Origin: a virus
Taxonomy: Duplodnaviria; Heunggongvirae; Uroviricota; Caudoviricetes
IMG/VR virus record: IMGVR_UViG_3300042519_000302
Direction: 5' to 3' (one strand)
DNA length: 64,000 bases
Shown here one piece after another: positions 3,001 to 39,679 of this stretch (positions are counted from its first letter, which is position 1; every line of letters starts with the position of its first letter). The position numbers and the translations under genes were made by a program. Below the pieces are notes generated by a model, which did no database searches, was not told where the DNA came from, and worked only from the letters and a program-made list of their open reading frames with translations.

Positions 3001-3251
3001 AACTTATCACCATATACTATTAATGGTTCACCATTCTCATCTATCACTTTAGAACCTTTTCCTCTTTCCCAATCACCAAACCAATTCTTAAATGAGTCAG
3101 TATATACCTGTGCCCATAGACGTAGAGCTTGCTCTTTGTCTTTTACAAGATCTTGTAATGTACTATACAGAGTAGAAGGCTGCCCATTAGGAGCCTCTAC
3201 TCTTTCAATTACACCATTATCATCATTTCTAAATACTTGACATTCAGCCAT
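1..3251 (-). CDS. N-terminal ~1083 aa of another very large virion/ejection protein. The start codon is at 3249-3251 and the ORF runs off the window's left edge, so it is partial. It has a PD-(D/E)xK-like 'LDFLAIE...ILDWKF' segment around 1440-1580.
   Basis: I translated the minus strand by hand from the ATG at 3251 and it is open to position 1 with protein-like composition. The ORF track shows no competing ORF in 772-3262. Gene density and strand match the flanking operon. A partial ORF like this would be missed by a complete-ORF finder. Confidence 0.6.
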   Translation of the reverse strand, partial: MAECQVFRNDDNGVIERVEAPNGQPSTLYSTLQDLVKDKEQALRLWAQVYTDSFKNWFGDWERGKGSKVIDENGEPLIVYGDKFQSDIVTPGPNQIKSVLNEGSFAIDKGGYDNTQVRTEAIAGGEGGVARKVARRQELEELGAYNVQFIEGGIKYSFDPTSVYFQDKNMASSIASPQTVSKIKEVLAKMGVSIEDLYTYAKSVELDVKGKTGVADLSRGVIAIANQQEGQALTEEMVHIATAMIEQTNPALITQMISKIDRFKIYKETYDTYKDTYTLPNGKPDIRKIKKEAVDKLITELIVNQMENTDQFPELREEVNQSFVRGLWNTILDFINGIYTKANIDIFTEVASQIGSGDISGDIADIKQGGIFFQLSDAQKKITDSLDQTKDIVTKVYKDQSEVDPILLDSEEASNYYEAQKPDGTNETVPKRVTDRVKAWYKKRFPGKVFTEQEKTFNELKRKFGVKGHQDLEDIHHRFFNEDGTRRVKPIDAPTTYNLESKQMYQLLEKYYVKLIDSFEKDTIIRAEVIIYNPKDKEAGTLDFLAIEPSGKAHILDWKFLQFADDSDDVAWFKQGAYDIQLGTYKDILRNYYGVKSFGMTRAIPIMLNIKTENKSDGSSEQVIKGISIGSVNPKEITDLRLLPVSEKTESTGFEKLDKYLAKLNTLYERIAGQEVDEEERQFKYARMMELKRAIRIAQGTGNISELINVILTTRAKGEQLINTYDTLFKDRDASSEDSTNEELSEFAGELRNYIETAEIFDRVDAQIGDLIYTPEMEIDVKTDEDKKLLNELKELRTNLEKEAKNIYKSKQELIDIAFKFADKHIGQRNLTTGLTKPEAVTKGVSSNFRGLEDLGQRSLNILAKLNRQSRTNANADSLEEIKELMDIREMFVKKGGDIRKTIKQVYQKDDKGEVINKLVYKYDKKFFEEVDAKANAGGDITWLRANIDMDAYKKEADGILERNIKRINDQFPGDNIEIVEKKEKAISQESRKYDITRKDFNGWNNYVIKRHPASKWESADYKKIKSDPELFALYNFISKINKKANEEGFIQNSVSSFFLPFVRKTMAESLVWDGKLSVMENF

Positions 3252-3262
3252 TTGGATTAATT

Positions 3263-6200
3263 TTATGATTTTTTACAGCGTCCATCTTTTTTATTTAACA
3301 CGTCATCTATCTCTGATGCTTCTACAGGAGGAGTTTTTTGAGTGCTCATAAATGCTGAAGCAATAGCTTCATCACTAGCTTCTTTCACCTTCATAAAGCC
3401 ATTATCAATTTTAGATTGGTTAGCTCCATCATAGAACTCATTGGCTCTGAAACTATCACCCCAAGCATTGATTGCTTTATAAACAATGAACTCATATCCT
3501 TTTCTATTATATGTAATCAAAGGATCAACACCATTTTCTGTTACTTTCTTAAACAATCCTTTCTTGATAAAAGAAAAGTCTGATGCTTTGACCATCTCTG
3601 CTCTTGTCTTTCCTTTAGGTATTTCTTCCCAACTATATACAATAATATCCTTAGTACTCTCTCTAGACAACGTTGATATCTTTATAAGTTGAGGTATGGT
3701 ACCTGCTTTCATTGCAATGTTTGCACCAGTGTTTAATATCTTTATTGCTCCATTATCATATCTAGTTTTTAATTTACCATCATCTTGTTTCTCTGTTTTC
3801 CATTGTGCTTTCTTATGTGGAACAATCTCATCATCATTCCAATTGTTTCTTTCAAAAACATTCAATGTAGCAAAGTCCTCTAAGTTAGGTAAAGTTTCTA
3901 ACCTAGACAAAATTTCATTGTATTCTTCTACAAAATCATCATATGGAATAAGAGATGTAAAAGAGATGGGAGATGTAGATAATCCAGATTGTAATATAGC
4001 AAGCTTTACTAGCTTCTTGTACAAAGGAAGATCACCTGTAGAATCCATGTAGTTTCTCAATTCTTCAAAGCCATATATTACTTTGTTCTGATCATACACT
4101 TTATTGTCCTTACCTGTCATATACAAGTTGTTAGGACGTTCTTCTTCTGCCCCTGAAAATTTAGGAGCTAAAGAATTTATAATAACATTATTATGTAAAA
4201 CATGCTCAGGATCATTCTTTATCTTATTAAAGTAATCTGTAATCTGTTTAGCTGTACCATTCTTAGATAACAGGTCTCTTTCCATATTGATCTTAAATGT
4301 TGGGTCAATTTGTACAGCCCAGTCAAAAAGATCATTAACTGCCTTTCTAGCCACCTTAACAAATTGTCTATCAGCCATATTAACATATGGTCTTAGTACA
4401 CGTTGAAGTACAGCTCTTACTCTTCTTGTATCAGAAGTTAAAACTGTATTACCAATAGCATTTCTACTATCACGCAAACCTATTCTAACTCTACCTATAA
4501 AAGAGTTATTTAGTAAGTTGTCTACAGAAGATATCATTGTTTCTCTAGCTTGAGATAACTGCTCTTCTTTCTTAAAGATTAACATTGGGTCATTGAATGA
4601 CGTAGTATCAAAGTTAGATCCTTGCACCACCTTAAACAATTGATTAGCCATCATGCCATACTTCAAGAACTCGTTTAATATGAATTGTTGTTCAGCTTTT
4701 CCAGCAACATCAAAAGACTTCTTACCTATGTTCTTCTCAAGATTAGTAAGATTAGGAATACTATTTAACCCTTGCAACTTGCTTTGGTCCACTTTATATT
4801 TCTCAGATTCTTTAATGGTAGTTACAGTGGAGTCATTAAATAACCAAGTGTATCCACTGTTTTCTAGTTCACGTACATAATCACGAATGATTGGTTGATT
4901 CATAAAGTAGGCAACCTCTTTAATTGGAACACCAATCTTAACTAAGAACAACCACGTAGGAGCTACGTTAGGGTTTGCACCTAATTCCATAATCCAAGGT
5001 CCCTTAGCAATATCCACATATCCATCAATGAACATACCAATAATATCAGATATGTCATTCTTGTTGTTAGCATCTTTAATACCAGATAGACTAGGAACTG
5101 TTCTACTACCAACCTTCACTGTATTGTATTTACCAAACTTAACAATACCATCTCCTAACCACTTTCTGTCAGACTTACTTAATTTAGACATTAATGATCT
5201 ATCAACATACATATTAGAACGTTGATTCTGAGCATGATTAGTTTGAGCTACAGCAGCAAGACCAATAGCATATTTACCACGTACAAATGCTTGTCTAAGT
5301 CTAGACATAAATATCTGATTCAACATATTGTCAGTAGAAGAATAATCAAATGAACCAAGACCTAACTTGTCTGTGATATCAATTGACATGTCTTTTAACA
5401 ACTTAGCATTATTTGGTGTAACTAATCTAGTATAGTTAGCCTCACTTCCAATGATGTTTTCAAGAGATTGAACGTATTGGTTCTCAATAGACTTCTTGTA
5501 TAACAGATTGATTATTTGATCTTTAGCTTTGATGCCTTTAGTAAATTCTTCTGTGATTTCAGTTTCATTAACAAGGCCATTTAAGTTTCCAATCATTGCT
5601 GTAATTAACTTACTTGCATTAGACTTCTCTTGAATCAGGTCTTCTAATAAAACTCTTTCCTCTGCTATGTATCTATCAAGCTCTTGTAATTGCTCTGAAC
5701 TTAAGAACTCTCCTTTATCAAACATTTCTTCAAACTTCTTGATAGCATCCTTTCCTATTCCAAAGTATGGAATCAATTTAGGTTTACCATCTTTCCCTTT
5801 GTAGATGTTCTTGAAATACATAGATAACTTATCTATATCAAAGTCAGATCCAACCTTCTGAACCAATGCAGCTGGTACAACAACAGAGTCTCCAAACTCC
5901 TTAGGAAGGAACTTAGCTATCTTAATTACATCCACAGAGTTTTGCTTCTGTGTAGGAATACGAAACGCTACACCCTTTAATAATGCCTGACCTTCTGGAG
6001 TATCATTTAAATATGTCAATAATTCTTCATCAGACATGTCACTATCAAACCATCTTCCCACCATCACTTCAGCTACACGCTCTCCACCTTTCTCATAAAA
6101 CTTTAATACATTTGATTCATATAATCCATTCTTTCCTACAGGTCTTACTGATTCAAATAGTGTAGAAGGAATCTGTACTTTCAATCCACCATTAATCTTA

Positions 6201-9200
6201 GGACGTACAATGTTCTTATCTACTATAGAGTAAAGAATGTTTCTCACTTGACTGTACATAGGACTAGCTTCAATTAACACTTGACCTTTCTCAAAGCCTA
6301 CAAGTGCAGCCACTATGTTACGATTCACTTCTCTTTTAAATAACTCAGAACGTAATGTCTTAGCTATCTTTTCAGGATCTAAAATTTCAAATCCTTGTTT
6401 AGTTTGTTTGATACCTAACTTATCAAGAAGGTTTTGATAACCTATACTAGCCATTTCTTCTAGCAAGTCTTGGTTTTCCAAGATCTGTTTGAATAATGGA
6501 GATGCATCAGACATAGCTTTTTCATCTTCAAGTGCTTCCCAAGCTTCTAAACGCTTATTAAAATCTTTCTCAGTGGGCATAAAGTCAATAGGTACACCAG
6601 CTTGTAAAAAGTCTAACGTCACTAACTTAGTAATCTGAGAACCTCTTGTTACAATAGCTTCATCTTTAGAAGGCACCTCAGATTGTACACTTATAATACT
6701 AAATGGTACATTAATCTTATCTGCCTTTTTAATAGCACTATCATTAAAATTACCTTGTTCATCATATAACTTAATCAACTTATCAGCACCCACCTTTCTA
6801 CCACTATCAAACACAGCATAATCAATATCAGCTTCTTGCATCTTGTTGTATAACTTGATAGCATTTGAATCTTTATTGATTTCATGTAACACTCTGTAAC
6901 TCAATGGATAAAGGGCAAACTTATCTAATACAACATCATTGTAAGACTTGCTGCTCATCTTAGCTCCAGCTACAATTGGTTTTAATGGAGTGTAGGCACT
7001 CTTCACTTGTGGATTACCTTCTTCTAATAAGTTTAATTCATCATCAGATAGATCTTTTCCCTTCTCTCTTTTTTCAAAGGCAACATCATATCTGTATTGT
7101 CTTTCTTCATTAGAGTTCCAGTTTGCAGCACGTATTCTAAAGTTGCGATAGGCCTTCATAGTAATCATACCACCACCATCAGTTTCAGTGAATGATGAAT
7201 ACTCTTTACTAAATCCTTCTACATCTGCTATACCTTTGACATCATCTAATGTGATTGTTTTGAAATAGTCATCTGTGAATTTAGTAAATCCAATATCTTT
7301 AACATCAGTGTATCCTTCATTATATACATTATTCATTGCAGCATTTAAACCTGCTGAACCATATATAATAGCCTGACGTGGAGATAGGAAACTCTTAATA
7401 CGTTTTAATTCATCCTTATAGAAATATGGATCTGAGTATACAAGTTTATGTAACTCTATGTTATTAATCATGTAGTTAACAGCTAAGTACTTGATGTTTA
7501 CATCAACATTATTCTCACTCAAAGCTGTTTTCTTTTCAAACTCTACACCATTGAAGTTAAATCCTGCATCATCTTCAGAAAGAATATTATAATTAGAATA
7601 AACAGTTTTTCTTCTTTCAACATCTCTTTTAACAAATGCATCTATAGCATTATTTATTCTTGGTTCAAATTGTGCATAAACCTCTTCAAGAGACTTGTCT
7701 TTCTTTGGATCATATGATATAACATCATCATGTAACTTTTGTCCTAATATGTTCTTGAAGAAACGTAAGTCTGTAGTCTTTCTAGTCTTATTCTCATCTT
7801 GTACAATCTTACGACCTTCTCTAGAAACAGCTAACTCTGATAGGAAATATCCTTTGAATATTCTATGTATTGGACTATTATCTTTCTTCAAGCTATTCAA
7901 AGTGATATTGTTACCTACATAGTTTGCCCAATCCAAAGAGGCATCTCCTGGAACAAGGTTCATATAGTATCCTGCTAGGTTAAGATTTAATTCTTCCTTC
8001 AAACGTTCACTAGGTGTAAGACTAGATGGGTCTTTTCTTTTGCCAAGACCATCATCAATCATACCACCTGCATATGCTGTGGTCAAGATGTCATTACCTT
8101 TAGGTAGTTTATTTCCTGAATCCTTATCAAATATCTTGTCCATAAATACAGAACCAGTAGTAAAGTTGTCTGTAAGTAGGTATTCATATCTAGAACCAAC
8201 TAGTTGTTTCTTATTAGTTATCTTAGTTAAGAAGTCACGTAAGCTACTAATAGCATTACCACCTATGAAAGACTGCACCCTATCACCCTCAAGATTGAAA
8301 TAAGTACTTTCAAAGTCAGGGTTTTGAATCTTTGCAAGCATCTCAGCAATCTCTTTAACTCTACCAGCAGTGTTGATTGTCTTGCTAGAAATAAACTTAA
8401 TCTTCTCAGCTTCTAATAAGTTCTTTTTAATACCAGCTACAGCATTATTAAAATCAGTCTCAAATCCAAATTTTCTAATCATTCTAATAGGAATATCCAC
8501 TCCTAAAGACTTCATGAATGCTACACTTCTTTCTAATGTTCCTAAAGGTTGGCTTTCAACATTTTTCTTAATGCTTACGTACATTTTATTAGGAGCATCA
8601 TAACTATAGTATTTACCTAAGTTATTTTGTATAGAACTAATAATGCTACTTTCCATATCATTAGCAATTTGCTTAGATGCTGTACCAACAGACATGTCAG
8701 TTGTTACAACAGTTCCATCTGGAAGTGTATACACTGTAACTACATCAGGAGCTTGTCCTTTCATCACCTTATAGAAAGAATGAATCAATTGAAGATCTGC
8801 ATCAGTTTTTACATTAGCATAAGGATTCAATTTCTCAGAAGATGGTTGTCCTGTAAGTCTTTCATATATTACACCATACTCAGGCTTTTGAGATTCAACA
8901 AACTCACGTAGCTTTTCCATCATATCATCTGCTGTATCTGAGTTATATAAAGCATTCTTAAGGTCTACATACACCTTACTCATTGGTATTAACTTAACAC
9001 CATTGATTGAAGAAAGTTCTCTCTTACCTCTTGCGTTTCTATATGGAATAGTAGCTAACAACAACTTAATAGCAGCGTTAGCCTTCTTAAACATATCTAT
9101 TTTCTCTGACTCTTGATAGTCTCCTTTACCTGTATTATTCTCATTTGTCTTCTGAGTATCATCATTCTCATCAAATTCAATAGAATAAGATAACAATTGT

Positions 9201-12200
9201 TCTTCAAAGATATCAGTTATCTCATCCCAGTTCTTATCTATAATTGCAAACAACTGCTCAGCTTGTGCAACTTCAGGAGCCACATCTTCTTTTGATGCCT
9301 TTCCCTCATTAATCATTTTAGCAGCTACGTTCTTAATTTTACCAACAACAGTGTATCTAAGGTTATCTTTAGCATCTTTATATATTACAGCTCTGCTTTT
9401 AGAAGGGATGTCAAATAAGCTTTGGTTAGTAGCAATAAGATTTGTAAGAGTTGCATATGTCATTTGCTGAATGGTATCATGAACTTGTTCTCCTAAAAGA
9501 CCTTTAGCAATTAAACTATACTCACTAGTTGGATCACCTATAGCATCCTCAACATCAATAATACCTGGCTTAGCTAATGCTAACTTAGATTGGTATGGAG
9601 AAGCATTCTTATAATAACCCTCTCCTATTCTTTTGAATAACTCTTCTGTATTTCTTGCAGCCTGAGGCCCTAAGAAATACTCTTTAATGAAGTTTACCAA
9701 GTCACTAAACATCTTAACAATATAAGGTCTGCCATCAGTAGGCTTAGGTGGAATCTTCTTATCTAATACGTATTCTCTAAACTCCTCTGCTAGTTCTTCC
9801 TTAATTTGTCCAGGAGTTGCTTCTGAGTATTTAATGTCTTGTCCTGTAACTCTATCTGTAAAGCTACCTTTTCTATTCTTGAATTCATTTACAATAGCCT
9901 TGCGTTCTTTAGGATCAGAGAACATATTCCATATAGCATGAAACACTTCATGGTATGCTGTCCCAGCTTCTGCATTAGTGTATATATAGATAGCACCATT
10001 CTTATACATACCCCAAGCTTTCTTTCCTCCTGTAGCTTTGATAACATTCTTCACTCTGTATACAGGAACATTAGGTAGGTTAGCTTTTAACCATTGTTCT
10101 AACTTCTTCCAGTTTTCAGATTTAAATGTTCCTATTTGGTTTTCTAATATCTCACGTAAGTCTCCTTCTTCATCTTCTAATAAAGCTGCTTTGATAGCAC
10201 TGCTTTTTACAGCAGGGCCCTTTGTTGTAACTTGTGGTGGAGTCTTTTTACCACCTTCTAAAGCAGCTAGTTCTGAATTAAGTGCTTTTTCAGCTTTATC
10301 ATAATTTTTACCATCTTCTGTTTCTGGAGCAGCCCAAGAACCAGTAAAAGATGCAAGCCATTTTTGTATTTTTAATATAGTACTACTAGGTACATACTTT
10401 TTATATAAATTAATTACAGCTTCTTTTGTAGCAGCTTCCCCTGATTTATAACTACCGTCAGGTTGTTTCTCAGAAAATAAACTAATGTTACCTTTTCTAT
10501 CTACAGTAAGTAAAAATTCTTTACCAGTATCTCCTATTATTTCTAGTTCAATAAAAGTACCTTGTGCTGCCAAAGAACCTTTTATAGCAGCTTTCTTAGT
10601 TTCTATATCAGAAACTACAGGAGCTAGTGCTTCTTCATCCTCTATTACTATACTATCTGCATCTGCTTCATCAGGAATTGTAAAGCTGTCATCATCTTCT
10701 GTAGTGGTTATTTTCTTTACAGGAACATTTAATAAATTAGCAATAGGAGCCTTTAATGCCCTTCCAATTCCTTCTTTCTTAACACCTGTAGCAAGAATAG
10801 CTTTCTCAGCTTTATCTAAGTCTTCTCCTTTTAATATCTTGATACCCTTATCAATATCTCCTTGAGCTAATAGGTTACGATTAGCTATGAATGCTATCCT
10901 AGTTCCCTTTGGAGTAATAAATATATTCTTAGTCTTACCATCTAATACAAACTTTGAATTAGGTTTTTTCTCTATAGGAGCAACTTTTCCTTCTTCTCCT
11001 ATAACAATAGATTCATCATCATCTTCTTGAGTTACAACTGGTGCAGCTGGTTTAGCTTTAACTCCACCAGGAACTACACTCTTAGGCACAGTTCTAACCA
11101 CTTCTGTAATAGTAAAGTTATCAGCAGCATCCCTAAGTGTAAAGTATACACCCTCTCTATTAGTATCTTCAGGAGATTCTAAAGCAGCAATATCAGTAAA
11201 TAAAGGAATCTCATTAGCTGTTCTTCCTTCATCTGATAATAAATACGTTTGATAGTTTTCCCAATCTTTTGTTTGTGGAACACCATTCTCACCAATACCT
11301 ATGATTTCTTCATATGATAAATTATATTCATCTGTGTTTTGTACCTTTCTAGCATTAACATTGTTGTACATGTTTTGTAGAAGAGTGACAATTGAGTTTT
11401 CCTGAGTTTCCATTCCTTGTGGTGTGAAAGAAAGACTCTCACCTTTACCAGAGAAGAATAATCTTAACTCACCATCTTCTCTTTCAAACCATATACTATT
11501 ATAGCCAGGGTCTTTACCTTCTCTAGGTTTACCCCAGAAAGTAACACTTCTTAACCAGTCAATTAAGTATTCACTTCTAGCTTCTACACCTTTATCATCA
11601 AATACATTTTTAGATAGTTGATTAAGAACTTTATATATAGTGGTAGCTTCTTTGCTATTAAACTTTCTATTCTTTAACTTAACATAAGCATTATCTAATA
11701 CTAAGAATACTCTACCAAGTACATCTGTAAACTCTGTACTTCCTTTACTAATATCTTTTGTAACAGTAGGCACTTCAATTAACTGCTTCTCAATCAAGTC
11801 TTTATCTTCAATCAAACCTGCAGCTTTTACAGACACAGCAGCATTTGGATCTGTAACCTTTTTACCTTCAGCTAATGTAACAGTCACTCTTGTAGGTCTT
11901 CCAAAAGAAGGAGTAATTGATTGTAAGCTAACATCAGGACTTTTTAATGTTTCTTTTCTCCAAGCAATGTATTGTTCTTTTAACTCTTTTCTAGTTTGTT
12001 CAGGAGTGTTGTTTCTAAACATTGTTTCATTTCCAAAATCAGGACCCCATTGTAAACTTTCATCAGGCATCACTTGGAATACAGCATTCTCTAACTTATC
12101 TTGACCTTCTGCAAGAGGTTGACCATTCTGACCTACTAATTTAAAATTACCATTACCTTGATCCTCAACCATTACTAATGCAATAGTTTTAGTTGGATCT

Positions 12201-15200
12201 ATATCTGTATTGTTGTTCTGTAAATAAGATGTAAGTCCAGGTATAACGTTGTCCTCATTTGCTGAGGTAACAATTACACCAAGTATATTATCCTTATTAG
12301 GGAATGAGTTGAACTTGTTACCAAAGAAGTTTGCACGCTCATAGCCTAGTATATTCTTACTAGCAATAGAAGATGTAACTAATATCTTTGGACCTTTCTT
12401 AGAGATAGGTTCATACTTATCACTGTATGGAGCATTGTCTAATTTCTCTTTACTTAATGTACCAATAACTGCATTGATAAGTTTACTATCAGCTTTTAAT
12501 TGTTTCTCTTGCTCTTGTTGTTTTTTGTAAGTTTCTGCCACTGCTTCAAACTTATTGAGAATCAACTCTTTAGCTTGTAGTTCTTGCTCAACTTCTTTAA
12601 GTTGAGTTTGCAATGCTTCTAACTCTCCTCTAAGCTCACCAATTGTACGCTCATTAGGAATAACATCTATTTCATCAATGTTTGCAATATCTCGTTCAAA
12701 CTCAATAAGATCATTTAATAGATCTGGATTAGCTTGTAAATAAGTTTCATAGGTAGATGTTCTATTGCTAGGCTCATACCCTACAACCATTGTAGTGTTT
12801 AAGAAATCTCTAATACCTTGAGGAGTGTATGGCAAGTTTGGATACTTAGCTTCAAACTTCTTAATTAAATCTAAAGCAAAATCAATAGCTGTTTTCAAAG
12901 CACCATCTACAAGATCTATTAACTTAGAGATAGAATTAATATTTAATCCTGTCTCTATAAGCATATCTTGAAGGTCAGTAGTCTGTTCTTTTAAGTCTTG
13001 GATTAACTCTTCTCCACCTGGAACTTCGTCAATGTTCTGAGCCATGTCAGCAACATATGCTTGATTAAACTCAAGTTGTTCTTGTTCTGCTCTTAAACTT
13101 TCAAGTTCACTAGTCAATTGTTCTTTCATTCTTGAAAGCTTAACAGCACTAGCAACAGCTTTGGCTGTAGTTCTCTTGAATGCTTTTGTTTTTGTAAGCT
13201 CTCCTTTACTTATCTTTTCTTCTAACTCAACTAAGTCAGCAACAATTTTATTAAATTGTTCTTGCTTTTGTTTTATTAAATTTGTAGTCTTTTGTAAATT
13301 ACCAGATACCTCATCAAATAACTCACCTAATATCTTAAGTCTACCAGCTCTTTTTGCGTCTACTCTATCATCTACTGCTGCTATAAATTCTTCTTGAGCT
13401 TGTTGTTGAACAGCAGTTAACTTTCCTACAGGCATAATCATAGCCTCGTTGAACCCTGGCTTAGCTACAAACTGATCATTAGTAATCTCAATGGTCTTGA
13501 TTCTACCTTTGGCATCTTTATAAACAAAGTTTAGTACATTGTCTTTTGTAGAGTATTCTAATCTACCAGGTTTCTTTCCACCATTCTTTGCACCAAAGTT
13601 AAATTCATAAGTTACATTAGCATGTTCTAAAAAGTACTTAGCCTTCTTATTATTCAAGGTGTCAGACACTTTGCCTAATTTATAATCAGCTAACTCTTCT
13701 TTAGATACATCTCTTATAACACCATTAGAATCTTTTATCTTAATAGTCCCATCTCCATTATCTCCAAGAATAGTTAATCTAGGAAAGCCATATACCTTTT
13801 CACCACCTTTGCTATACCCCACTCTTCTACCTAAGAAGTATTCAGTACCCACTTCTATGTTTTCTTCACCATCTTTAGTCTTAACTGTAACAGTTTCTTT
13901 TGGAGCTGTTTCATCTATAACAGTTTCATCCATACTCTGTTCAGTGCTATACTTACTAGGATTTTTCTTTATATCACTATATTCAAATAAGAAGTTGTCT
14001 CTACGCAAAGCTAGCTCTGCAACATCTTCTAATGTTTGAATTAATTCATCTTCATTAATAGACTTTGATGCCTTAACTTTTTCAACAGCTGCTATATAAG
14101 AATCACTGTTACCAGTAGTTAAATCATTAACAATACTAGTAGTATCAATACCTACACTATCTAATACTCCCATTAACTGAGGAAGTCTCTCATCATAGTC
14201 TGCTACCTTGGTTGCAGCATATATCATCTGATCCATCACCTTTTGTGAATAGACAGGTTTACCATCAGTATTTATTAATCCACCATAACGTACGTCTAAT
14301 GATTGATATAATGATTTGATGTTCTCAGCAGTTGTTTCTAAATTAGTTAATCTCTGTAAGTATGCTTCTTTAGTATCTGTATCTAATGCTTTACCTTCTG
14401 CTTGTAATTCAGCAAAACCTTCATCAGTTGCTGCTTGTTTTTTATAGTCATTAATGTCACTTTGAACAAGATCAAATCTACCATACTTAATTCTAGGAGT
14501 TAAGTAGTTGATTATATAATCACGCTCTAGGTCTTTGCTTTCTAAAACATCACCTCTTCTCAATGCTTGTTCTCTTTCCTCTTGTATAGTTGTACCTCTA
14601 TTGACAGAACCTCTTAACTCTTTAGTAAAGTCAGATAGATTAGTTTTGTTGAATCCACTAATAGCAGCCTGAGTATTTTTTGAAATTTCTTTTGCTTCAG
14701 AATACTTGCCACGACCTAACATAAGTGCTCCAGACAATCCTCCAATAAGAACATTCTCCATACCCTCATTAGTAGTCAAGGTTTGAGTAATACCTTCAGC
14801 CATACTATCTAACCAACTTGTTGGTTCATTATTGTATTTCTTATTGTAATAATTTTCTGTAGTTTTACCAATTGCATATTGTGCACCTTCTTCAAATGCT
14901 TCAGAAGCAGAGAAGGTATATGGTCTTATCTTGTTTAGAGTAGACAAGATTTTTCCAAATCTATTAGGAGCTGCTATGTATTTACCAGCAGCATCTGTTG
15001 TAACTTCACCAATCTCTTTTGTAAGAGAATTGATAATACCTTTCTCTCCCTTATATGTAGCTCCTAATATTTTAGGAAATTGAATATAGTTAGTAGCAGT
15101 CAATAAACCAACATTAGCAAAATAAGAATTGTTACCTACTTCTTCAGCAGCCTGATTAATTTTTGCTAAGTCTTCTCCTATAGGTTCATCACCACCATTG

Positions 15201-16129
15201 GCAGCTTTGTATTCTTGTATCTTCTTATTTCTAAAATCATTAAGATTATGGTATGCTTCAAAGCCAGCCTCACCCACTGTACCTAATGCAGCAACAGTAA
15301 TTTGTCCTCCTCTACCCAATGAAGAATAAGAAGACAAAAACTTATCAGAAAGACCTTTAAGTTTACCATATGTAGAAGCAGCTTTATCTGCAGCAATTAA
15401 TGCTTCTTCTGAAGCAGCAAGAGCCTCTGCTCCTTTGCCCATTGAAAATAATCTAGCTGTAAGTGGAATTGATTTCAAAGCAGCAGCATATGCTCCTCCA
15501 GATAATGCAGCACCTGCAGCAAAACCTAAATTCTTAACAACACCATCCCAAAGAAAGTTAGCACTAAATAATTTGCTTGGAGAATACCAATTGGCTTCTC
15601 TCTCATCAGTTTTATAATAGTTAGGTAATATATCTTCAGAAGCTTTTACAATCTTTTCATCTAAAAATCTATTCATCTCATTGTCATAAAGACTTGCAAA
15701 TCTTCCATCTTGACCCCATCTAATTATTCCATTTACTAATCCTACAGTAGATTGTAAGAATGTAGTTCCTGTTAGAACTAATCCTTTACCTACACCATTA
15801 ACCATTTTGTTAGCCCATCCTTGTCCTTGGGCATATGCATCTTCATTATTATAATCTCCAGGCATGAAGTTATCAAATCTATTAGAACTAGCTTCTGCTA
15901 ATGTTCTAGATATAGAACCACTAGTTTGTCTTCCTAAAGCATTAGATGGTGTAAGCACTTTATTCTCCCAAGCACTAAGAGCAGAAGGAGTAGGTTCTCC
16001 ATCAAGACTTGGCATACTACTATCTAGTCCTCTGAATGGAACAGAAGGTTGACCTTCTGCTATAGGAGGTCTATAATCGTTGAACTTAGTTTCCAATAAA
16101 GATCTATCTATTAAAGGAGTATCTGCCAT
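3263..16129 (-). CDS. Giant 4288-aa virion cargo/ejection protein. It carries a DFDID motif (aa 3429-3433, nt 5831-5845) of the type in the metal-binding loop of double-psi beta-barrel RNA polymerases, as reported for crAss-like virion RNAPs. It also carries an HEVFH zincin-like motif (aa 2060-2064, nt 9938-9952). There are N-terminal Gly/Ala-rich hydrophobic 'glycine-zipper' segments and long coiled-coil stretches.
   Basis: A single uninterrupted 12.9-kb ORF. I located the motifs by direct back-translation of the DNA. Its position at the distal end of the late operon next to other huge proteins matches the crAss-like cargo/virion-RNAP block. The RNAP assignment is inference from one short motif. 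Confidence 0.6.
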   Translation of the reverse strand: MADTPLIDRSLLETKFNDYRPPIAEGQPSVPFRGLDSSMPSLDGEPTPSALSAWENKVLTPSNALGRQTSGSISRTLAEASSNRFDNFMPGDYNNEDAYAQGQGWANKMVNGVGKGLVLTGTTFLQSTVGLVNGIIRWGQDGRFASLYDNEMNRFLDEKIVKASEDILPNYYKTDEREANWYSPSKLFSANFLWDGVVKNLGFAAGAALSGGAYAAALKSIPLTARLFSMGKGAEALAASEEALIAADKAASTYGKLKGLSDKFLSSYSSLGRGGQITVAALGTVGEAGFEAYHNLNDFRNKKIQEYKAANGGDEPIGEDLAKINQAAEEVGNNSYFANVGLLTATNYIQFPKILGATYKGEKGIINSLTKEIGEVTTDAAGKYIAAPNRFGKILSTLNKIRPYTFSASEAFEEGAQYAIGKTTENYYNKKYNNEPTSWLDSMAEGITQTLTTNEGMENVLIGGLSGALMLGRGKYSEAKEISKNTQAAISGFNKTNLSDFTKELRGSVNRGTTIQEEREQALRRGDVLESKDLERDYIINYLTPRIKYGRFDLVQSDINDYKKQAATDEGFAELQAEGKALDTDTKEAYLQRLTNLETTAENIKSLYQSLDVRYGGLINTDGKPVYSQKVMDQMIYAATKVADYDERLPQLMGVLDSVGIDTTSIVNDLTTGNSDSYIAAVEKVKASKSINEDELIQTLEDVAELALRRDNFLFEYSDIKKNPSKYSTEQSMDETVIDETAPKETVTVKTKDGEENIEVGTEYFLGRRVGYSKGGEKVYGFPRLTILGDNGDGTIKIKDSNGVIRDVSKEELADYKLGKVSDTLNNKKAKYFLEHANVTYEFNFGAKNGGKKPGRLEYSTKDNVLNFVYKDAKGRIKTIEITNDQFVAKPGFNEAMIMPVGKLTAVQQQAQEEFIAAVDDRVDAKRAGRLKILGELFDEVSGNLQKTTNLIKQKQEQFNKIVADLVELEEKISKGELTKTKAFKRTTAKAVASAVKLSRMKEQLTSELESLRAEQEQLEFNQAYVADMAQNIDEVPGGEELIQDLKEQTTDLQDMLIETGLNINSISKLIDLVDGALKTAIDFALDLIKKFEAKYPNLPYTPQGIRDFLNTTMVVGYEPSNRTSTYETYLQANPDLLNDLIEFERDIANIDEIDVIPNERTIGELRGELEALQTQLKEVEQELQAKELILNKFEAVAETYKKQQEQEKQLKADSKLINAVIGTLSKEKLDNAPYSDKYEPISKKGPKILVTSSIASKNILGYERANFFGNKFNSFPNKDNILGVIVTSANEDNVIPGLTSYLQNNNTDIDPTKTIALVMVEDQGNGNFKLVGQNGQPLAEGQDKLENAVFQVMPDESLQWGPDFGNETMFRNNTPEQTRKELKEQYIAWRKETLKSPDVSLQSITPSFGRPTRVTVTLAEGKKVTDPNAAVSVKAAGLIEDKDLIEKQLIEVPTVTKDISKGSTEFTDVLGRVFLVLDNAYVKLKNRKFNSKEATTIYKVLNQLSKNVFDDKGVEARSEYLIDWLRSVTFWGKPREGKDPGYNSIWFEREDGELRLFFSGKGESLSFTPQGMETQENSIVTLLQNMYNNVNARKVQNTDEYNLSYEEIIGIGENGVPQTKDWENYQTYLLSDEGRTANEIPLFTDIAALESPEDTNREGVYFTLRDAADNFTITEVVRTVPKSVVPGGVKAKPAAPVVTQEDDDESIVIGEEGKVAPIEKKPNSKFVLDGKTKNIFITPKGTRIAFIANRNLLAQGDIDKGIKILKGEDLDKAEKAILATGVKKEGIGRALKAPIANLLNVPVKKITTTEDDDSFTIPDEADADSIVIEDEEALAPVVSDIETKKAAIKGSLAAQGTFIELEIIGDTGKEFLLTVDRKGNISLFSEKQPDGSYKSGEAATKEAVINLYKKYVPSSTILKIQKWLASFTGSWAAPETEDGKNYDKAEKALNSELAALEGGKKTPPQVTTKGPAVKSSAIKAALLEDEEGDLREILENQIGTFKSENWKKLEQWLKANLPNVPVYRVKNVIKATGGKKAWGMYKNGAIYIYTNAEAGTAYHEVFHAIWNMFSDPKERKAIVNEFKNRKGSFTDRVTGQDIKYSEATPGQIKEELAEEFREYVLDKKIPPKPTDGRPYIVKMFSDLVNFIKEYFLGPQAARNTEELFKRIGEGYYKNASPYQSKLALAKPGIIDVEDAIGDPTSEYSLIAKGLLGEQVHDTIQQMTYATLTNLIATNQSLFDIPSKSRAVIYKDAKDNLRYTVVGKIKNVAAKMINEGKASKEDVAPEVAQAEQLFAIIDKNWDEITDIFEEQLLSYSIEFDENDDTQKTNENNTGKGDYQESEKIDMFKKANAAIKLLLATIPYRNARGKRELSSINGVKLIPMSKVYVDLKNALYNSDTADDMMEKLREFVESQKPEYGVIYERLTGQPSSEKLNPYANVKTDADLQLIHSFYKVMKGQAPDVVTVYTLPDGTVVTTDMSVGTASKQIANDMESSIISSIQNNLGKYYSYDAPNKMYVSIKKNVESQPLGTLERSVAFMKSLGVDIPIRMIRKFGFETDFNNAVAGIKKNLLEAEKIKFISSKTINTAGRVKEIAEMLAKIQNPDFESTYFNLEGDRVQSFIGGNAISSLRDFLTKITNKKQLVGSRYEYLLTDNFTTGSVFMDKIFDKDSGNKLPKGNDILTTAYAGGMIDDGLGKRKDPSSLTPSERLKEELNLNLAGYYMNLVPGDASLDWANYVGNNITLNSLKKDNSPIHRIFKGYFLSELAVSREGRKIVQDENKTRKTTDLRFFKNILGQKLHDDVISYDPKKDKSLEEVYAQFEPRINNAIDAFVKRDVERRKTVYSNYNILSEDDAGFNFNGVEFEKKTALSENNVDVNIKYLAVNYMINNIELHKLVYSDPYFYKDELKRIKSFLSPRQAIIYGSAGLNAAMNNVYNEGYTDVKDIGFTKFTDDYFKTITLDDVKGIADVEGFSKEYSSFTETDGGGMITMKAYRNFRIRAANWNSNEERQYRYDVAFEKREKGKDLSDDELNLLEEGNPQVKSAYTPLKPIVAGAKMSSKSYNDVVLDKFALYPLSYRVLHEINKDSNAIKLYNKMQEADIDYAVFDSGRKVGADKLIKLYDEQGNFNDSAIKKADKINVPFSIISVQSEVPSKDEAIVTRGSQITKLVTLDFLQAGVPIDFMPTEKDFNKRLEAWEALEDEKAMSDASPLFKQILENQDLLEEMASIGYQNLLDKLGIKQTKQGFEILDPEKIAKTLRSELFKREVNRNIVAALVGFEKGQVLIEASPMYSQVRNILYSIVDKNIVRPKINGGLKVQIPSTLFESVRPVGKNGLYESNVLKFYEKGGERVAEVMVGRWFDSDMSDEELLTYLNDTPEGQALLKGVAFRIPTQKQNSVDVIKIAKFLPKEFGDSVVVPAALVQKVGSDFDIDKLSMYFKNIYKGKDGKPKLIPYFGIGKDAIKKFEEMFDKGEFLSSEQLQELDRYIAEERVLLEDLIQEKSNASKLITAMIGNLNGLVNETEITEEFTKGIKAKDQIINLLYKKSIENQYVQSLENIIGSEANYTRLVTPNNAKLLKDMSIDITDKLGLGSFDYSSTDNMLNQIFMSRLRQAFVRGKYAIGLAAVAQTNHAQNQRSNMYVDRSLMSKLSKSDRKWLGDGIVKFGKYNTVKVGSRTVPSLSGIKDANNKNDISDIIGMFIDGYVDIAKGPWIMELGANPNVAPTWLFLVKIGVPIKEVAYFMNQPIIRDYVRELENSGYTWLFNDSTVTTIKESEKYKVDQSKLQGLNSIPNLTNLEKNIGKKSFDVAGKAEQQFILNEFLKYGMMANQLFKVVQGSNFDTTSFNDPMLIFKKEEQLSQARETMISSVDNLLNNSFIGRVRIGLRDSRNAIGNTVLTSDTRRVRAVLQRVLRPYVNMADRQFVKVARKAVNDLFDWAVQIDPTFKINMERDLLSKNGTAKQITDYFNKIKNDPEHVLHNNVIINSLAPKFSGAEEERPNNLYMTGKDNKVYDQNKVIYGFEELRNYMDSTGDLPLYKKLVKLAILQSGLSTSPISFTSLIPYDDFVEEYNEILSRLETLPNLEDFATLNVFERNNWNDDEIVPHKKAQWKTEKQDDGKLKTRYDNGAIKILNTGANIAMKAGTIPQLIKISTLSRESTKDIIVYSWEEIPKGKTRAEMVKASDFSFIKKGLFKKVTENGVDPLITYNRKGYEFIVYKAINAWGDSFRANEFYDGANQSKIDNGFMKVKEASDEAIASAFMSTQKTPPVEASEIDDVLNKKDGRCKKS

Positions 16130-18741
16130 TATAAAGGTTTTTTAGAAGCTTTTTGTATTTTTTGTAGATCAGCTGCTGTTGCTGGTTTATCAGTCAATAG
16201 TTCAAATATTCCAGCATCTGTTGCTTGTTGCATTGCAGGAACTATTTGATCACGTGGTAATAATCCTTTTCTTGGAAAACTAATCTCAGGACTCCATCCT
16301 CTAGGATAATTGACACCATCAATAGTCATAGGTAAAGGATTAAATAAAGTGTATCTAATTTGATACATTCCAGGACTATTAATTGGATCAGGTTGAATAA
16401 GATTTGCTTTGGTACCAAAACTTTGTACATTAGGAAAATCTATTGGTCCTAAAAATGCATTTTCAGGTGTTGTTCTTCCATTACCATCTGTTGCTGTAGT
16501 GAACCCTCCTGTTTTATTTATTTGATCTATATAAGGAGAAGCTGCTTGTTCTGCAGGAGAATTAAAAGATACACCAAATGTTCCTTGTTTTTGTTCAGGA
16601 GTCATCATAAACTCTGTACTTACTCCTTTGTTTCCTAATACAGAAACCTTATACATAGTTGGTTGTATCTCTGTACCTTGTACAACAGTTATTCTAACAT
16701 TTGGATTATCTTGTGATGCTATGTCGTCTAGTACATCAGCATTAAAATTAGGAGAATTTGCAAAACCTCCCTGCTTTCTTCCAACACTAGCTGCAGAGGT
16801 TAACATATTTACAAGAGATCTTTTTTGTTCAGGTGTGTTTGCAGGTACACTATAACTCATTCCTTGACTTACAGTGAATTTTGTTTTAAGAGCTTCATCT
16901 ATATAGTCATTTACTTGAGTGATAGTCTTGTTATAAGGAAAGTTTACAGCATTGTTATAATTATTTAAATTATCTAAAAGAGATTTTTCTCCACCTACTG
17001 GAGCAACTTTTCCTGTCTTTACTTGGAACAAATGAAATTGTTTTGGAGAAAGTTCTTTACTAGCTCTATCATAATCATAACTTGTACTTGCTCTTCCTCC
17101 AGGTCCTGAAGGAGGAGTAACTTTTAAATACTTACTATATGCACTATTAAAATCAACAAAATCTCTTGGAGTGTATGTATATCTTTCTCCAGTGACTCTA
17201 TTTGCATAATTTACATTTGGAGCATTTTTAGGAATTAACTTATCAATACTACCATATTTATTAACTGCTTCATTTCTTAAGCCTACTAACAAACTCATAT
17301 TAGATTCTGTCTTTCTTCTTAAGGCTTCTGTAGTTTTAAAATATTCTGATATAGATGCATCCACCCCATTAGGACTTTTTTCCCAAGCTACTCTTTGTTG
17401 ATTAAACCAACTAGCATCTCTACCATTATTCTTAATGAATGCACCATCACTGTCATCTATAAATTTCTTATCTATACTAGTGGTTTCAGTTAATGTAGAG
17501 TTGTTTATTTCTGGTAATAAACTTTGATCAATAGTATCAGGAAAACCACCATAAGGTGCATTAGCTAATTTTGCTATTGCATTTGCTTCTCTAGCAATTC
17601 TATTCCCTTCTCTTTGTTCAAAAATATTATCTTTATGAATCTGAAAGGCTTGGTTGAGGGTTGCTCTTCTCATTGCCATGTCTGCCTCAGGACTAGCTTC
17701 TTTAGTTACAGAAGTTTCTGTAAATGAAAATGGTCTAGAGAAATTAATAATAGAATCTGTGCTATAAAGAGTTGCTTTAGCTCCATCCAAATTACCTGCA
17801 TCTACTTGTCCTATAAGTCTACCCTTTTCTCTATCTAAGCTTGTAATTGCTTTATCAAGATCTTTAATCTTACTTTCTATTAGTAACTTTTCACTTCCAG
17901 AATTTGTAGAAGAAAGGGCATTAGTTAGTTTTGTTTTTTGATCTACATAAAAACTTGAGTTATCTATGTATCTATCTTCTATTACTTTTTTAAAGTCTTC
18001 TGGTTTTTTAATATTAGAATATGTGTACAGTCCATCAATTTCCATCTGTCTCATAGCAGCAGGGGTTAACCCAGCTAACAATGCTTGTTGGATTTTGTCA
18101 GGAGATATTCCTGCATATTTTGTACGAGTCATAGCATCTGCTAATACTAAACTAGACTTTCCAGTGTTTGGATCTGTTACAGTGGTAAATGAATTTTCTG
18201 TAATAGTTTCATCTTTTGTAACACCTTTGATAACATCTAATGCTTCTTTTTTCCAATTTGTATAAGGTTCATATCCTCCACTGAATGTTTCTTTTATATC
18301 TCCATTAAACCATTTTTCAGTTTTTTGTTGAAGTAACAAATCATTTGAGGGAGACGTTTTACCTGCCTTTAGATATTCTTCTCTGTCTTTAATTGCCTTT
18401 TTATACTGTTGCGTAGACGAGACAGCATTTCTAACATTTTCATCTTTAATTATTTGCCCTGTCATACCAGCAACAGAATTAACCAATTGTTGATTAGAGA
18501 AGTCACCAGCTGCCACTGTCTTCAAATTGCTACCCAACTCATTAAGTTTGGACTGTAATAATTCTTTATCCTGAGGTCTAGATAGTTCTATGCCACCCAC
18601 TCTATCAATCTGATTCTGGATCTTTTGCACACCTTGGTCATATTGTGCCTGCTTTTGCATGCCAACTTGCACCATAGCCTCCACAGGGAGTTCTTGGATG
18701 TAGGGGTTAAATTGTGATATTTGATCTGTAAACGATGCCAT
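16129..18741 (-). CDS. 870-aa virion/ejection-associated protein, function unknown.
   Basis: Long ORF translationally coupled to the giant gene by a TAATG overlap at 16129. I recognised no motif. Confidence 0.6.
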   Translation of the reverse strand: MASFTDQISQFNPYIQELPVEAMVQVGMQKQAQYDQGVQKIQNQIDRVGGIELSRPQDKELLQSKLNELGSNLKTVAAGDFSNQQLVNSVAGMTGQIIKDENVRNAVSSTQQYKKAIKDREEYLKAGKTSPSNDLLLQQKTEKWFNGDIKETFSGGYEPYTNWKKEALDVIKGVTKDETITENSFTTVTDPNTGKSSLVLADAMTRTKYAGISPDKIQQALLAGLTPAAMRQMEIDGLYTYSNIKKPEDFKKVIEDRYIDNSSFYVDQKTKLTNALSSTNSGSEKLLIESKIKDLDKAITSLDREKGRLIGQVDAGNLDGAKATLYSTDSIINFSRPFSFTETSVTKEASPEADMAMRRATLNQAFQIHKDNIFEQREGNRIAREANAIAKLANAPYGGFPDTIDQSLLPEINNSTLTETTSIDKKFIDDSDGAFIKNNGRDASWFNQQRVAWEKSPNGVDASISEYFKTTEALRRKTESNMSLLVGLRNEAVNKYGSIDKLIPKNAPNVNYANRVTGERYTYTPRDFVDFNSAYSKYLKVTPPSGPGGRASTSYDYDRASKELSPKQFHLFQVKTGKVAPVGGEKSLLDNLNNYNNAVNFPYNKTITQVNDYIDEALKTKFTVSQGMSYSVPANTPEQKRSLVNMLTSAASVGRKQGGFANSPNFNADVLDDIASQDNPNVRITVVQGTEIQPTMYKVSVLGNKGVSTEFMMTPEQKQGTFGVSFNSPAEQAASPYIDQINKTGGFTTATDGNGRTTPENAFLGPIDFPNVQSFGTKANLIQPDPINSPGMYQIRYTLFNPLPMTIDGVNYPRGWSPEISFPRKGLLPRDQIVPAMQQATDAGIFELLTDKPATAADLQKIQKASKKPL

Positions 18742-18817
18742 AGTACAAAATTAATTTAAAATATTAGAATTACCAAGAGCTATAACAATTTTTAGTAATT
18801 CACTATAACTGAAATAG

Positions 18818-22390: not shown

Positions 22391-22410
22391 ATTATACTCT
22401 ATTGTATGAT

Positions 22411-38476: not shown

Positions 38477-38497
38477 TTTATTATTAGTTTAGATAAA

Positions 38498-39679
38498 TTA
38501 AGGAATATACATTATATAATACGCAGCAATAACAGGTTGGATGTTTGCGTGAGCTTGTCCACTACCTGTATTGTCAATTCCAATAGATACGTTACCAGGA
38601 GTATTAGAAGTAACTGTTATTCCAGTTGTACTAGTTGTTGTTGCATAATTTTGAGGAAGGTTTTTAGATAAACCTATACTTCCACTTGCTCCACCAAAAT
38701 CATTTGTTTTTCCACCAAAATGGAAGTGACCAGGATCATTTAATGTAACATTTGTTGTTCCTACTGCAGTGTGTGAGTGAGAAGGCAATTGTGATGTAAT
38801 AAGTGTTACACTATTTGCACCTGCTGTGGTGAATAATGCATAGTTTGGATTTCCAACAAAAGCAGGATTTACAGAAGCATCAAGGCCAATATTAATAGGA
38901 GGAACATTATCAATAGCTCCAACAGCAACACGTCCTCTTTTATCAGGAGTGGCATTAAGACCATTACATAGATACACCTTATAGAAACCAAGACTTGGAA
39001 AACCAACACCTGATCCATCAAAGTTACTCAATGGTCCATAATATTCATATGCTACAAATGGAACCATTTTTAAATATTGTTGTATGCTTCCACTTCCTGC
39101 TTGACTAGCTAAATAAGCTGCAATCAAAGCATCAAGATCTGATAGTTTAACATAGTTTGTAGCTACATCAAGTTCAAGAGCAGCAAGATCAGCTATAGTA
39201 TCACATAACCTTGTTATAATAGCTTGGACAATAGCATGCGTATCTGAGCTAGTTGTTACACCAGTCAAACAATCAATATCATAGTCAGCATTTAGTATAG
39301 TTATTTCAGCATCAATTGCATCAATCTGAGCTTGTAAATCACAAACTACTTGTACTAAAGCATTAAACAACTGTGCAGATGTCCAAGTATCTGCTTCACT
39401 TGGAGTAGGTAAATAACCATTTATAATTGCACAACGTATACTTTCTAATATAAGAATCTTATCTCCTTCTCCAGTTAAGAGAGGGACTAAGTTATTAATT
39501 ATATTATCTAATACAAGCTGAAGGTTATCTCCATATGTTATATCTAAAGGAATGCTGTCAAGACCTGTATATCTGACACATTGATCAGATACAATTTGTA
39601 CACATCCATTATAACAGGCATCACAAGGTCTTGTTGTTGTAATGGTAGAAGTTGTACTTGTAGTGGTATCTTCTGGCAT
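38498..39679 (-). CDS. 393-aa tail fibre with an N-terminal poly-Thr plus Cys-rich anchor domain, a central coiled coil, and a C-terminal phage tail-collar-type receptor-binding domain (..ALFTTAG..TSQLPSHSHT..). The anchor domain is paralogous to the N-terminus of the 810-aa fibre.
   Basis: The LPSHSH motif and surrounding context match the tail-collar pattern (...LP.H.H) of T4 gp12 and MdpB-type domains. By hand alignment, the N-terminal G(D/E)NL..(V/A)L..I(N/D)..L block is shared with 36044-38476. Confidence 0.55.
   Translation of the reverse strand: MPEDTTTSTTSTITTTRPCDACYNGCVQIVSDQCVRYTGLDSIPLDITYGDNLQLVLDNIINNLVPLLTGEGDKILILESIRCAIINGYLPTPSEADTWTSAQLFNALVQVVCDLQAQIDAIDAEITILNADYDIDCLTGVTTSSDTHAIVQAIITRLCDTIADLAALELDVATNYVKLSDLDALIAAYLASQAGSGSIQQYLKMVPFVAYEYYGPLSNFDGSGVGFPSLGFYKVYLCNGLNATPDKRGRVAVGAIDNVPPINIGLDASVNPAFVGNPNYALFTTAGANSVTLITSQLPSHSHTAVGTTNVTLNDPGHFHFGGKTNDFGGASGSIGLSKNLPQNYATTTSTTGITVTSNTPGNVSIGIDNTGSGQAHANIQPVIAAYYIMYIP

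Follow-up and report, generated by a model that had tools for sequence, protein, structure and literature searches.

Fusion of a gp47-like cargo protein with a crAss-like virion RNA polymerase in a 4288-residue reading frame of an environmental phage

A single open reading frame (ORF) of 4288 amino acids (aa) occupies positions 3263..16129 on the minus strand of a stretch of 64,000 nucleotides (nt) from the IMG/VR virus record IMGVR_UViG_3300042519_000302 (Caudoviricetes); the whole stretch is referred to below as the window. The product of this ORF, hereafter the giant, is very probably a virion-packaged crAss-like polyprotein that joins two of the three conserved cargo proteins of the transcription block. 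Its N-terminal ~2175 aa form a gp47-like cargo protein (named after gp47 of phage crAss001), in which a Gly-rich N-terminal region leads into a long helical body and an HExx[H/E] metal-site domain forms the C-terminal end, and its C-terminal ~2080 aa are a two-barrel DNA-dependent RNA polymerase (RNAP) equivalent to gp66 of phage phi14:2 and gp50 of crAss001. The giant is another example of a known fused crAss-like RNAP system, one that is common in environmental relatives. An earlier note on this DNA had placed the ORF at these coordinates, and the ORF list and the translation bear this out, giving one unbroken frame from ATG to stop; the motifs DFDID at aa 3429-3433 (nt 5831-5845) and HEVFH at aa 2060-2064 (nt 9938-9952) also lie exactly where that note had put them.

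The C-terminal half is an RNA polymerase of the gp66 family

The RNAP module of the giant (3335..9508, minus strand; aa 2208-4265) is the counterpart of phi14:2 gp66, of crAss001 gp50 and of a 2155-aa RNAP encoded by L002, a related 113-kb metagenomic contig. In blastp comparisons, the module is 45% identical to the L002 protein over 2094 aa, and the giant matches gp66 with an E value of 1.6e-28 across 1040 aa and crAss001 gp50 with an E value of 5e-15. When the module was compared with annotated phages by tblastn, phi14:2 g066, annotated as 'catalytic RNA polymerase subunit', was matched at E 5e-19, together with the RNA polymerase of IAS virus and many crAss-like genes annotated as 'putative RNA polymerase'. 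A phmmer search of the PDB with the whole 4288-aa protein missed 6VR4, the structure of gp66, which was recovered only by a profile: with 40 sequences of the RNAP family searched against the whole PDB, 6VR4 was the sole match (E 5.4e-37, ~1300 positions). The gp66 protein is a virion-packaged, injected, Mg2+-dependent DNA-dependent RNAP that transcribes the early genes; it carries two double-psi beta-barrels in a single chain, and replacement of any one Asp of its DFDID motif by Ala kills the activity (Drobysheva et al., bioRxiv 10.1101/2020.03.07.982082).

The predicted fold agrees with this homology, the fold of 6VR4 being two barrels that a helical connector of ~140 residues links in one chain. 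The AlphaFold2 (AF2) model of aa 2900-4050 has a predicted local distance difference test (pLDDT) score of 80.6 and a predicted template modelling score (pTM) of 0.77, and its only significant match in the Foldseek PDB search is 6VR4_A (E 1.9e-28, template modelling score (TM) 0.61, 1268 columns). In the predicted secondary structure, a beta region at aa 3051-3161 is followed by helices at aa 3190-3308 and by a further beta region at aa 3311-3452, which carries DFDID. The first beta-rich barrel region (6644..6982, minus strand; aa ~3050-3162, with AF2 strands at model residues 152-262) contains the invariant K3112-V-G within SGRKVGA, which is aligned with DGVKVGA in gp66; K-V-G is invariant in the 40-sequence alignment (K213, V214, G215). 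The second barrel region (5765..5977, minus strand; aa ~3385-3455) contains R3390-x-P-x-Q-x-x-x-S3398 and G-S-D3429-F-D-I-D3433-K-L, and both the RxPxQxxxS and the GSDFDIDKL columns are likewise invariant in that alignment. In the pairwise alignment, FRIPTQKQNS...GSDFDIDKLSMY of the giant is paired with YRIPNQGQSS...GSDFDIDKMYVM of gp66, and D3429, D3431 and D3433 therefore correspond to D1361, D1363 and D1365 of gp66.

It should be mentioned that 1.3 DxDxD motifs are expected by chance from the composition of the giant, so the motif by itself is not significant. Its conservation was followed in homologues of the last 1289 aa, 188 of which were found in metagenomes; of the 120 listed, which go down to 32% identity, 119 keep DFDID. 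The earlier identification of an RNAP from the Asp triad was correct: both sequence and predicted fold lead to gp66 and 6VR4, and DFDID falls on an Asp triad that is experimentally essential and conserved in the listed homologues. Taken as a whole, the assignment of aa ~2208-4288 to the crAss-like virion RNAPs of the gp66 family is strongly supported.

Further likenesses to phi14:2 gp66 (PDB 6VR4; Drobysheva et al. 2021) and crAss001 gp50 are found along the chain. The homology covers ~1000-1300 residues and includes an identical, aligned DFDID as well as conserved RxPxQxxxS and KVG motifs, and ~820-860 residues follow DFDID in each protein. On the other hand, the identity between the giant and gp66 is only ~23%, and, unlike gp66, the polymerase of the giant has no N-terminus of its own but continues from ~2200 gp47-like residues.

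Among the other homologues of the RNAP module are proteins with YbiA/NADAR (PF08719) or histidine phosphatase domains, and in the relative L003 (18675-20216) the gene after the RNAP encodes a 513-aa protein that starts with MSC and has a Pfam ART-PolyVal (ADP-ribosyltransferase) domain. These domains suggest that the cargo chain acquires variable effector domains.

The N-terminal half corresponds to crAss001 gp47 and phi14:2 gp67

Three proteins of crAss001, gp47, gp49 and gp50, are the 'RNA-polymerase-associated' cargo proteins that were found in virions by mass spectrometry (Bayfield et al. 2023), and gp67, gp65 and gp66 of phi14:2 are their respective counterparts; gp47 and gp67 have both been detected in virions. 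The conserved N-terminal region of the giant (13868..15898, minus strand; aa 78-754) is homologous to gp67 and gp47. By blastp, aa 78-480 match gp67 aa 47-409 with E values of 1e-9 to 2e-12, and three collinear segments match gp47, including the HExxH domain: aa 103-754 are paired with gp47 aa 92-847 (E 8e-33) and aa 1986-2154 with gp47 aa 2077-2231 (E 3.5e-11). With the N-terminal region as the tblastn query, the matches fell on genes of crAss-like phages annotated as 'putative RNA-polymerase subunit'. The gp47/gp67-like body as a whole (11102..16117, minus strand; aa 5-1676) is a separate 2110-aa gene in L002, whose product is 42% identical to it by blastp over L002 residues 27-1686. The body is followed by a variable region (10175..11062, minus strand; aa ~1690-1985) of acidic linkers and small inserted domains, which is poorly conserved in relatives, has no counterpart in the L002 proteins and is only patchily covered by homologues.

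By these alignments, aa ~80-2175 are collinear with crAss001 gp47 and, in part, with phi14:2 gp67. Both proteins have the Gly-rich N-terminal region and the helical body in common with the giant, and with gp47, though not with gp67, the giant also shares the C-terminal GTxYHExFH domain followed by LAE[EG]F. Unlike the giant, gp47 and gp67 are free-standing and end in a C-terminal Cys, whereas the chain of the giant runs on into the polymerase. The proposal that the polymerase is fused to cargo or ejection domains was right, the partner being the virion protein represented by gp47 and gp67.

The Gly-rich character of the N-terminal region is concentrated in zipper-like segments (14570..15832, minus strand; aa 100-520), which are Gly/Ala-rich and weakly hydrophobic (aa 118-136, 201-221, 277-293 and 459-474). 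One of them, LGFAAGAALSGGAYAAALKSI, had been singled out beforehand and is located at aa 201-221, as placed. The first 520 aa contain 3.85 small-xxx-small zipper motifs per 100 aa and the rest of the protein 0.66, a roughly six-fold enrichment, and the Gly positions of these segments are conserved in gp67 and in the L002 homologue.

The fusion and its gene order recur in relatives

In the window, the gp47-like part is fused upstream of the RNAP, and a gp49-like ORF lies downstream, as in the transcription/cargo block. The downstream ORF (1..3251, minus strand; at least 1083 aa) starts with MAECQVF and leaves the window at its left edge; the ORF listing omits frames that exit the window edge. 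This ORF begins at nt 3251, 11 nt past the stop of the giant, which refutes the earlier statement that the giant ends the late operon. By blastp, it is 45% identical to the 1614-aa protein of L002, which matches crAss001 gp49 with an E value of 6e-6; the relation of the downstream ORF to gp49 is a weak one, and it represents the third cargo family. In L002, the two halves of the giant are separate abutting genes, and the order is gp47-like (2110 aa), RNAP (2155 aa) and gp49-like (1614 aa), with the same synteny in phi14:2. The place of the polymerase between a gp67/gp47-like and a gp65/gp49-like gene is a further likeness of the giant to gp66 and gp50. Judged by alignment and gene order, the giant is a fusion of a gp47-like and a gp50-like protein that is followed by a gp49-like gene.

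The separate halves in L002, together with the chance expectation for DxDxD in a protein of this size and composition, would fit an alternative in which two genes were joined by an assembly or sequencing error and both DFDID and HExxH are chance matches. Such an artefact is exceedingly improbable and is already refuted by the relatives. The same sequence, identical or at 97% identity, is present on independent contigs (P0001, P0002), and an exhaustive profile search found the fused layout in proteins of 3700-5167 aa that represent more than 110 clusters at 50% identity, all continuous and with the same domain order. In each of these representatives HExx[H/E] lies ~1385 residues upstream of DFDID, and both motifs are conserved. 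In addition, the join is located inside conserved sequence, away from a gene boundary.

The fusion has precedents among described phages. According to Drobysheva et al. (bioRxiv 10.1101/2020.03.07.982082), who cite Yutin et al. 2018, the RNAP and two neighbouring virion proteins are fused into a huge polyprotein in some crAss-like phages, and a zincin-like domain is found in one of the three transcription-block proteins. The fusion in the giant is of the same kind as those 'huge polyprotein' cases but joins only two of the three proteins. In the RefSeq crassvirus cr108_1 (L006), gp054 and gp053 encode a gp47-like part that is continuous with the RNAP. Unlike the giant, cr108_1 gave no recognisable HExx[H/E] in a pattern search. 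The suggestion that the architecture goes beyond what was known for these systems was, given these polyproteins, their zincin-like domain and the fused cr108_1, overstated.

As an observation on cr108_1 itself, its RNAP gene is split at 15311-15602 by an insertion of ~290 nt inside the catalytic motif, between GSD and [L]YDIDK, a position that corresponds to GSD and FDIDK in the giant. Introns have been reported in crAss-like RNAP genes, and this insertion would fit them.

Outside the crAss-like phages, Thermus phage P23-45 offers a comparison, in that a two-barrel RNAP is fused to a very long virion protein and ejected into the host. There the partner is the tail tape measure, the RNAP is N-terminal and the phage is a siphovirus, and no sequence relation to the giant was detected.

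Several points weigh against reading the giant as a packaged and ejected polymerase-cargo polyprotein. The whole giant has no match in Pfam or PHROGs. The two-barrel fold is a modelled one, taken from the Foldseek match and the predicted secondary structure. While the homologies, the polymerase-core fold, the conservation of the motifs and the synteny were all observed for the giant itself, its packaging, ejection and early transcription are carried over from experiments on homologues, and the proteomic and transcriptional data behind its packaging and timing come from phages other than its own. Finally, hydrophobicity argues against transmembrane helices in the N-terminal part. With a cut-off of ~1.6 for the Kyte-Doolittle 19-residue mean (KD19), the maximum of the N-terminal part is 1.26 and the segment at aa 201-221 reaches 1.18; the maxima of homologues have a median of 1.25 (n=112), and 3 of the 112 reach 1.6, while the equivalent segments of gp67 lie at 1.47-1.72. 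Of the glycine-zipper membrane segments proposed in the earlier note, the Gly/Ala-rich composition and the zipper enrichment were confirmed, but the hydrophobicity expected of transmembrane helices was not. The giant differs here from membrane-inserting ejection proteins of the T7 gp14-16, P22 gp7/16/20 and N4 gp51/52 type, as it lacks their predicted transmembrane helices. Insertion into a membrane after ejection, perhaps under particular conditions, is possible and speculative.

A conserved HExx[H/E] module lies at the fusion point

Between the two halves is a module (9605..10174, minus strand; aa 1986-2175) that contains HEVFH and, downstream, E2111-x-x-A-E2115 (nt 9785-9799). The chance expectation of HExxH in the giant is 0.004, because the protein has just 14 His. 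The C-terminal domain of crAss001 gp47 carries GTTYHEAFH at residue 2157, and a module profile of 142 sequences is aligned with gp47 aa 2088-2295 by hhalign with a probability of 98.4% and an E value of 8e-15. By tblastn, the module was found in 62 crAss-like phage records. The consensus of the 142 homologues is G-T-x-Y-H-E-x-F-[H/E]. H2060 and E2061 are present in all 142, which is partly by construction, as H-E was itself part of the search pattern for the module. At position 2064, Glu is found in 95 homologues (67%) and His in the other 47. Further downstream, E2111 is invariant (142/142), A2114 is kept in 138 and position 2115 is Glu or Asp in 141.

Gluzincins of MEROPS clan MA(E) have the signatures HExxH...ExxxD in thermolysin and HExxH...ExxAD in neprilysin. 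When His occupies position 2064, the module pattern HExxH...ExxA[E/D] corresponds, at the level of sequence, to the classical gluzincin signature. Positions 2064 and 2110 (nt 9797-9802 encode aa 2110-2111) covary strongly, with a mutual information of 0.72 bits: Glu at 2064 is accompanied by Lys or Arg at 2110 in 95 of 95 cases, and His is accompanied by Glu in 36 of 47. This covariation implies that the two helices touch, as in a zincin. The AF2 model of aa 1950-2330 is of low confidence overall (pLDDT 54) and better in its core (aa 2059-2150, pLDDT 72-89). The core order in this low-confidence model, strand-strand-helix(HExxH)-helix-hairpin-helix(Glu), with the E2111 helix at fragment residues 157-174, agrees with the metallopeptidase (MPTase) core described by Iyer et al. 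2017.

No zincin fold match was obtained for the module. Its profile matched none of the zincin families in Pfam at E values up to 10, and a profile search of the PDB at E values up to 10 gave no match. Phi14:2 gp67 has no HExxH, and a different one (HEIMH) occurs in phi14:2 gp65; hhalign relates the module to that region with a probability below 1%, and a homologue search with gp65 residues 101-430 returned nothing. In L002 the module is entirely missing. The zincin proposed in the earlier note finds support only in part: the HExxH motif is present and is joined by a downstream ExxA[E/D] with an invariant Glu; the conservation of the second His of HEVFH did not hold, Glu standing in its place in 95 of the 142 homologues, and neither a fold nor a profile match to zincins supports the assignment. 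The module likely holds a metal site, to judge from its conserved residues. That it is a peptidase is plausible, and proteolysis itself is speculative.

Two functions of this metal site were considered. In the first, the module would be an active gluzincin-type metallopeptidase that cleaves in cis, in the capsid or after ejection, and frees the RNAP from the gp47-like half; we regard this as a possibility short of an even chance. The H-E pair wherever the module can be located (with the reservation on the pattern given above), the invariant E2111 and the nearly invariant A2114 and E2115 are in keeping with it, as are the local secondary structure of the AF2 model and the position of the module exactly at the junction of the two halves. 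The N4-type virion RNAPs, which are always fused to a zincin-like domain, offer a parallel, and their zincin-like MPTase has been proposed to act in self-processing or after injection (Iyer, Burroughs and Aravind 2017). However, the N4 virion RNAP is packaged unprocessed despite this domain (Iyer et al. 2017), crAss001 gp47 bears the same domain though it is not fused to an RNAP, and L002 does without the module. The frequent replacement of the second His by Glu and the lack of any profile or fold match to a zincin also tell against cleavage.

In the second, the module would have a non-proteolytic structural or metal-binding role, and the giant would work uncleaved, as a tethered machine that is anchored by its N-terminus at the envelope or the ejection channel and has its polymerase in the cytoplasm. 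The exchange of His and Glu at position 2064 follows the charge at position 2110 so closely that a salt bridge or other structural contact seems a better explanation than a strict requirement of catalysis; known peptidases show no detectable relation, and more than 110 divergent clusters have stably kept the fused state. Yet the H-E pair and the invariant Glu of ExxA[E/D] are more typical of a catalytic metal site, and the authors of the gp66 study expected such polyproteins to be cleaved (Drobysheva et al., bioRxiv 10.1101/2020.03.07.982082). We regard this second role, too, as short of an even chance, and as slightly less likely than cleavage.

The N4-like (Schitoviridae) virion RNAP gp50 resembles the giant in being a giant ejected polypeptide (~3500 aa) that combines a virion RNAP with an HExxH domain. 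It differs in that it is a T7-like single-subunit enzyme, non-homologous to the two-barrel enzyme, and no sequence relation was detected between the HExxH domains of the giant and N4. The parallel is a resemblance of design and not homology.

Proteins of ~320-360 aa with HExxE (P0124-P0126) were considered as a free-standing form of the module and were dropped; P0124 comes from a stretch in which its contig is frameshifted, and it probably represents a fragment.

Cysteines mark the ends of the cargo proteins

The only Cys of the giant is Cys4285 (3275..3277, minus strand), four residues from the C-terminus, and the only Cys in the visible part of the downstream ORF is Cys4 (3240-3242). A Cys within the last 12 residues is found in all 122 homologues with a complete C-terminus, in proteins that have only 1-3 Cys in ~4300 residues; the Cys-poor cargo proteins overall have 1-3 Cys per 1400-5000 residues. 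At the N-terminus, a Cys within the first 10 residues occurs in 0 of 111 fused proteins vs 4 of the 6 proteins beginning with the HExx[H/E] module.

Where separate genes encode the cargo proteins, the same residues flank the gene junctions. There is a Cys at the end of the gp47-like protein, one at position 3-6 and another within the last 12 residues of the RNAP, and one at position 3-5 of the gp49-like protein. In phi14:2, gp67 ends with ...NTIC, gp66 starts with MAC and ends with ...QECK, gp65 starts with MSC, and there is no other Cys in the three proteins. In crAss001, the sole Cys of gp47 is at -3, those of gp50 are at 5 and -9, and the sole Cys of gp49 is at 5. The pattern is also present in IAS virus, cr108_1, L002, L003 and Leptolyngbya phage Lbo-JY46. 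Unlike the unfused polymerases, the giant lacks the ~60-residue Cys-bearing N-terminal domain, and the first ~60 residues of the downstream ORF resemble the N-terminus of phi14:2 gp66 (E 6e-4). The downstream ORF and gp66 may thus have a Cys-bearing N-terminal 'junction' domain in common.

Terminal Cys on both sides of the gene junctions suggest that the cargo proteins are linked head to tail by a disulfide or a shared metal, and intermolecular disulfides are known elsewhere in crAss001 virions. One tentative extension, which we think doubtful, is that the three transcription-block cargo proteins travel as one chain through such links, which would form in the virion and be released in the reducing cytoplasm; in the giant, a peptide bond would have taken the place of the first joint, at which the HExx[H/E] domain is located. 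No mention of a linkage through terminal Cys was found in the gp66 or crAss001 structure papers.

A related arrangement was noticed in Lbo-JY46 (L007, 4355-17261), where a gp47-like protein of 1552 aa has its sole Cys as the last residue and the next protein, of 2748 aa, has its sole Cys at position 4. The 2748-aa protein lacks a DFDxD motif and shows no similarity to the RNAP module by BLAST, and the polymerase of Lbo-JY46 may have been replaced or may have diverged past recognition.

Genomic context and origin of the phage

The neighbours of the giant in the window form a crAss-like late module on the minus strand, with the large terminase at 49878-51917, the portal at 47287-49878, the major head protein at 43769-45322 and tail fibre proteins at 36044-39679. 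A structural protein of 1583 aa (25264..30015, minus strand) matches large 'virion structural protein' PHROGs and the 1654-aa structural protein of Lbo-JY46, and several large unannotated ORFs sit between it and the giant. The 1583-aa ORF was also considered as the true RNAP and was ruled out, as it is Cys-rich and has no PDB or RNAP match. Among isolates, the terminase comes closest to that of Leptolyngbya phage Lbo-JY46 (39.6% identity); next are the Cellulophaga phi4:1 group and, after it, crAss-like phages of the Crassvirales. By this ranking, the phage therefore belongs to the wider crAss-like assemblage, outside the described Crassvirales families. It is a member of an environmental, low-GC clade of that assemblage.

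Immediately upstream of the giant is an ORF of 870 aa (16129..18741, minus strand) whose stop overlaps the start codon of the giant. It is free of Cys, matches phrog_32131 ('virion structural protein'), is 30% identical to an 891-aa protein of L002 and is a probable smaller cargo protein. Together with two further ORFs, of 1190 and 650 aa, it makes up a set of three large minus-strand ORFs directly upstream of the giant (16129-24363) with zero Cys; the tail and structural proteins further upstream contain 1-3% Cys. The three Cys-free ORFs are probably additional ejected cargo proteins.

Two observations concern the tail fibre region. In the collagen-like tail fibre protein of 810 aa (36044-38476, minus strand), all 7 Cys are within the first 62 residues (MACNPGDPC...), and a stretch of ~2 kb around its gene is a local peak of G+C content, at 0.43 vs ~0.34 elsewhere in the window.

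Proposed mechanism and implications

From the homologies above, a course of events for the giant may be proposed. As the penultimate gene of the late operon visible in the window, the giant would be made late and packed in the capsid as cargo. At infection, it would pass out through the tail in a partly unfolded state, led by its N-terminus, as has been proposed for the crAss001 cargo, and the Gly-rich N-terminal part may then engage the envelope or the ejection conduit. The polymerase would refold in the cytoplasm, where the Mg2+ site formed by D3429, D3431 and D3433 would serve the transcription of early genes from the incoming DNA. The HExx[H/E] domain between the halves most likely binds metal; it may cut the chain to free the polymerase, act on envelope or host targets, or have another metal-dependent role.

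As posed, the RNAP finding largely re-identifies a known system, and the terminal-Cys pattern and the covariation in the HExx[H/E] module are the observations most worth following. What is gained is that the crAss-like virion RNAP system extends well past the gut Crassvirales into a large environmental clade, in which fusion of the polymerase to its partner cargo protein is routine and gives polypeptides of 4000-5000 residues. This clade is a natural test case for the packing of such cargo, its threading through a short tail and its activation, and it provides new handles on these steps in the metal-site HExx[H/E] domain at the fusion point, with its charge-compensating position, and in the conserved terminal Cys at the junctions of the cargo genes.

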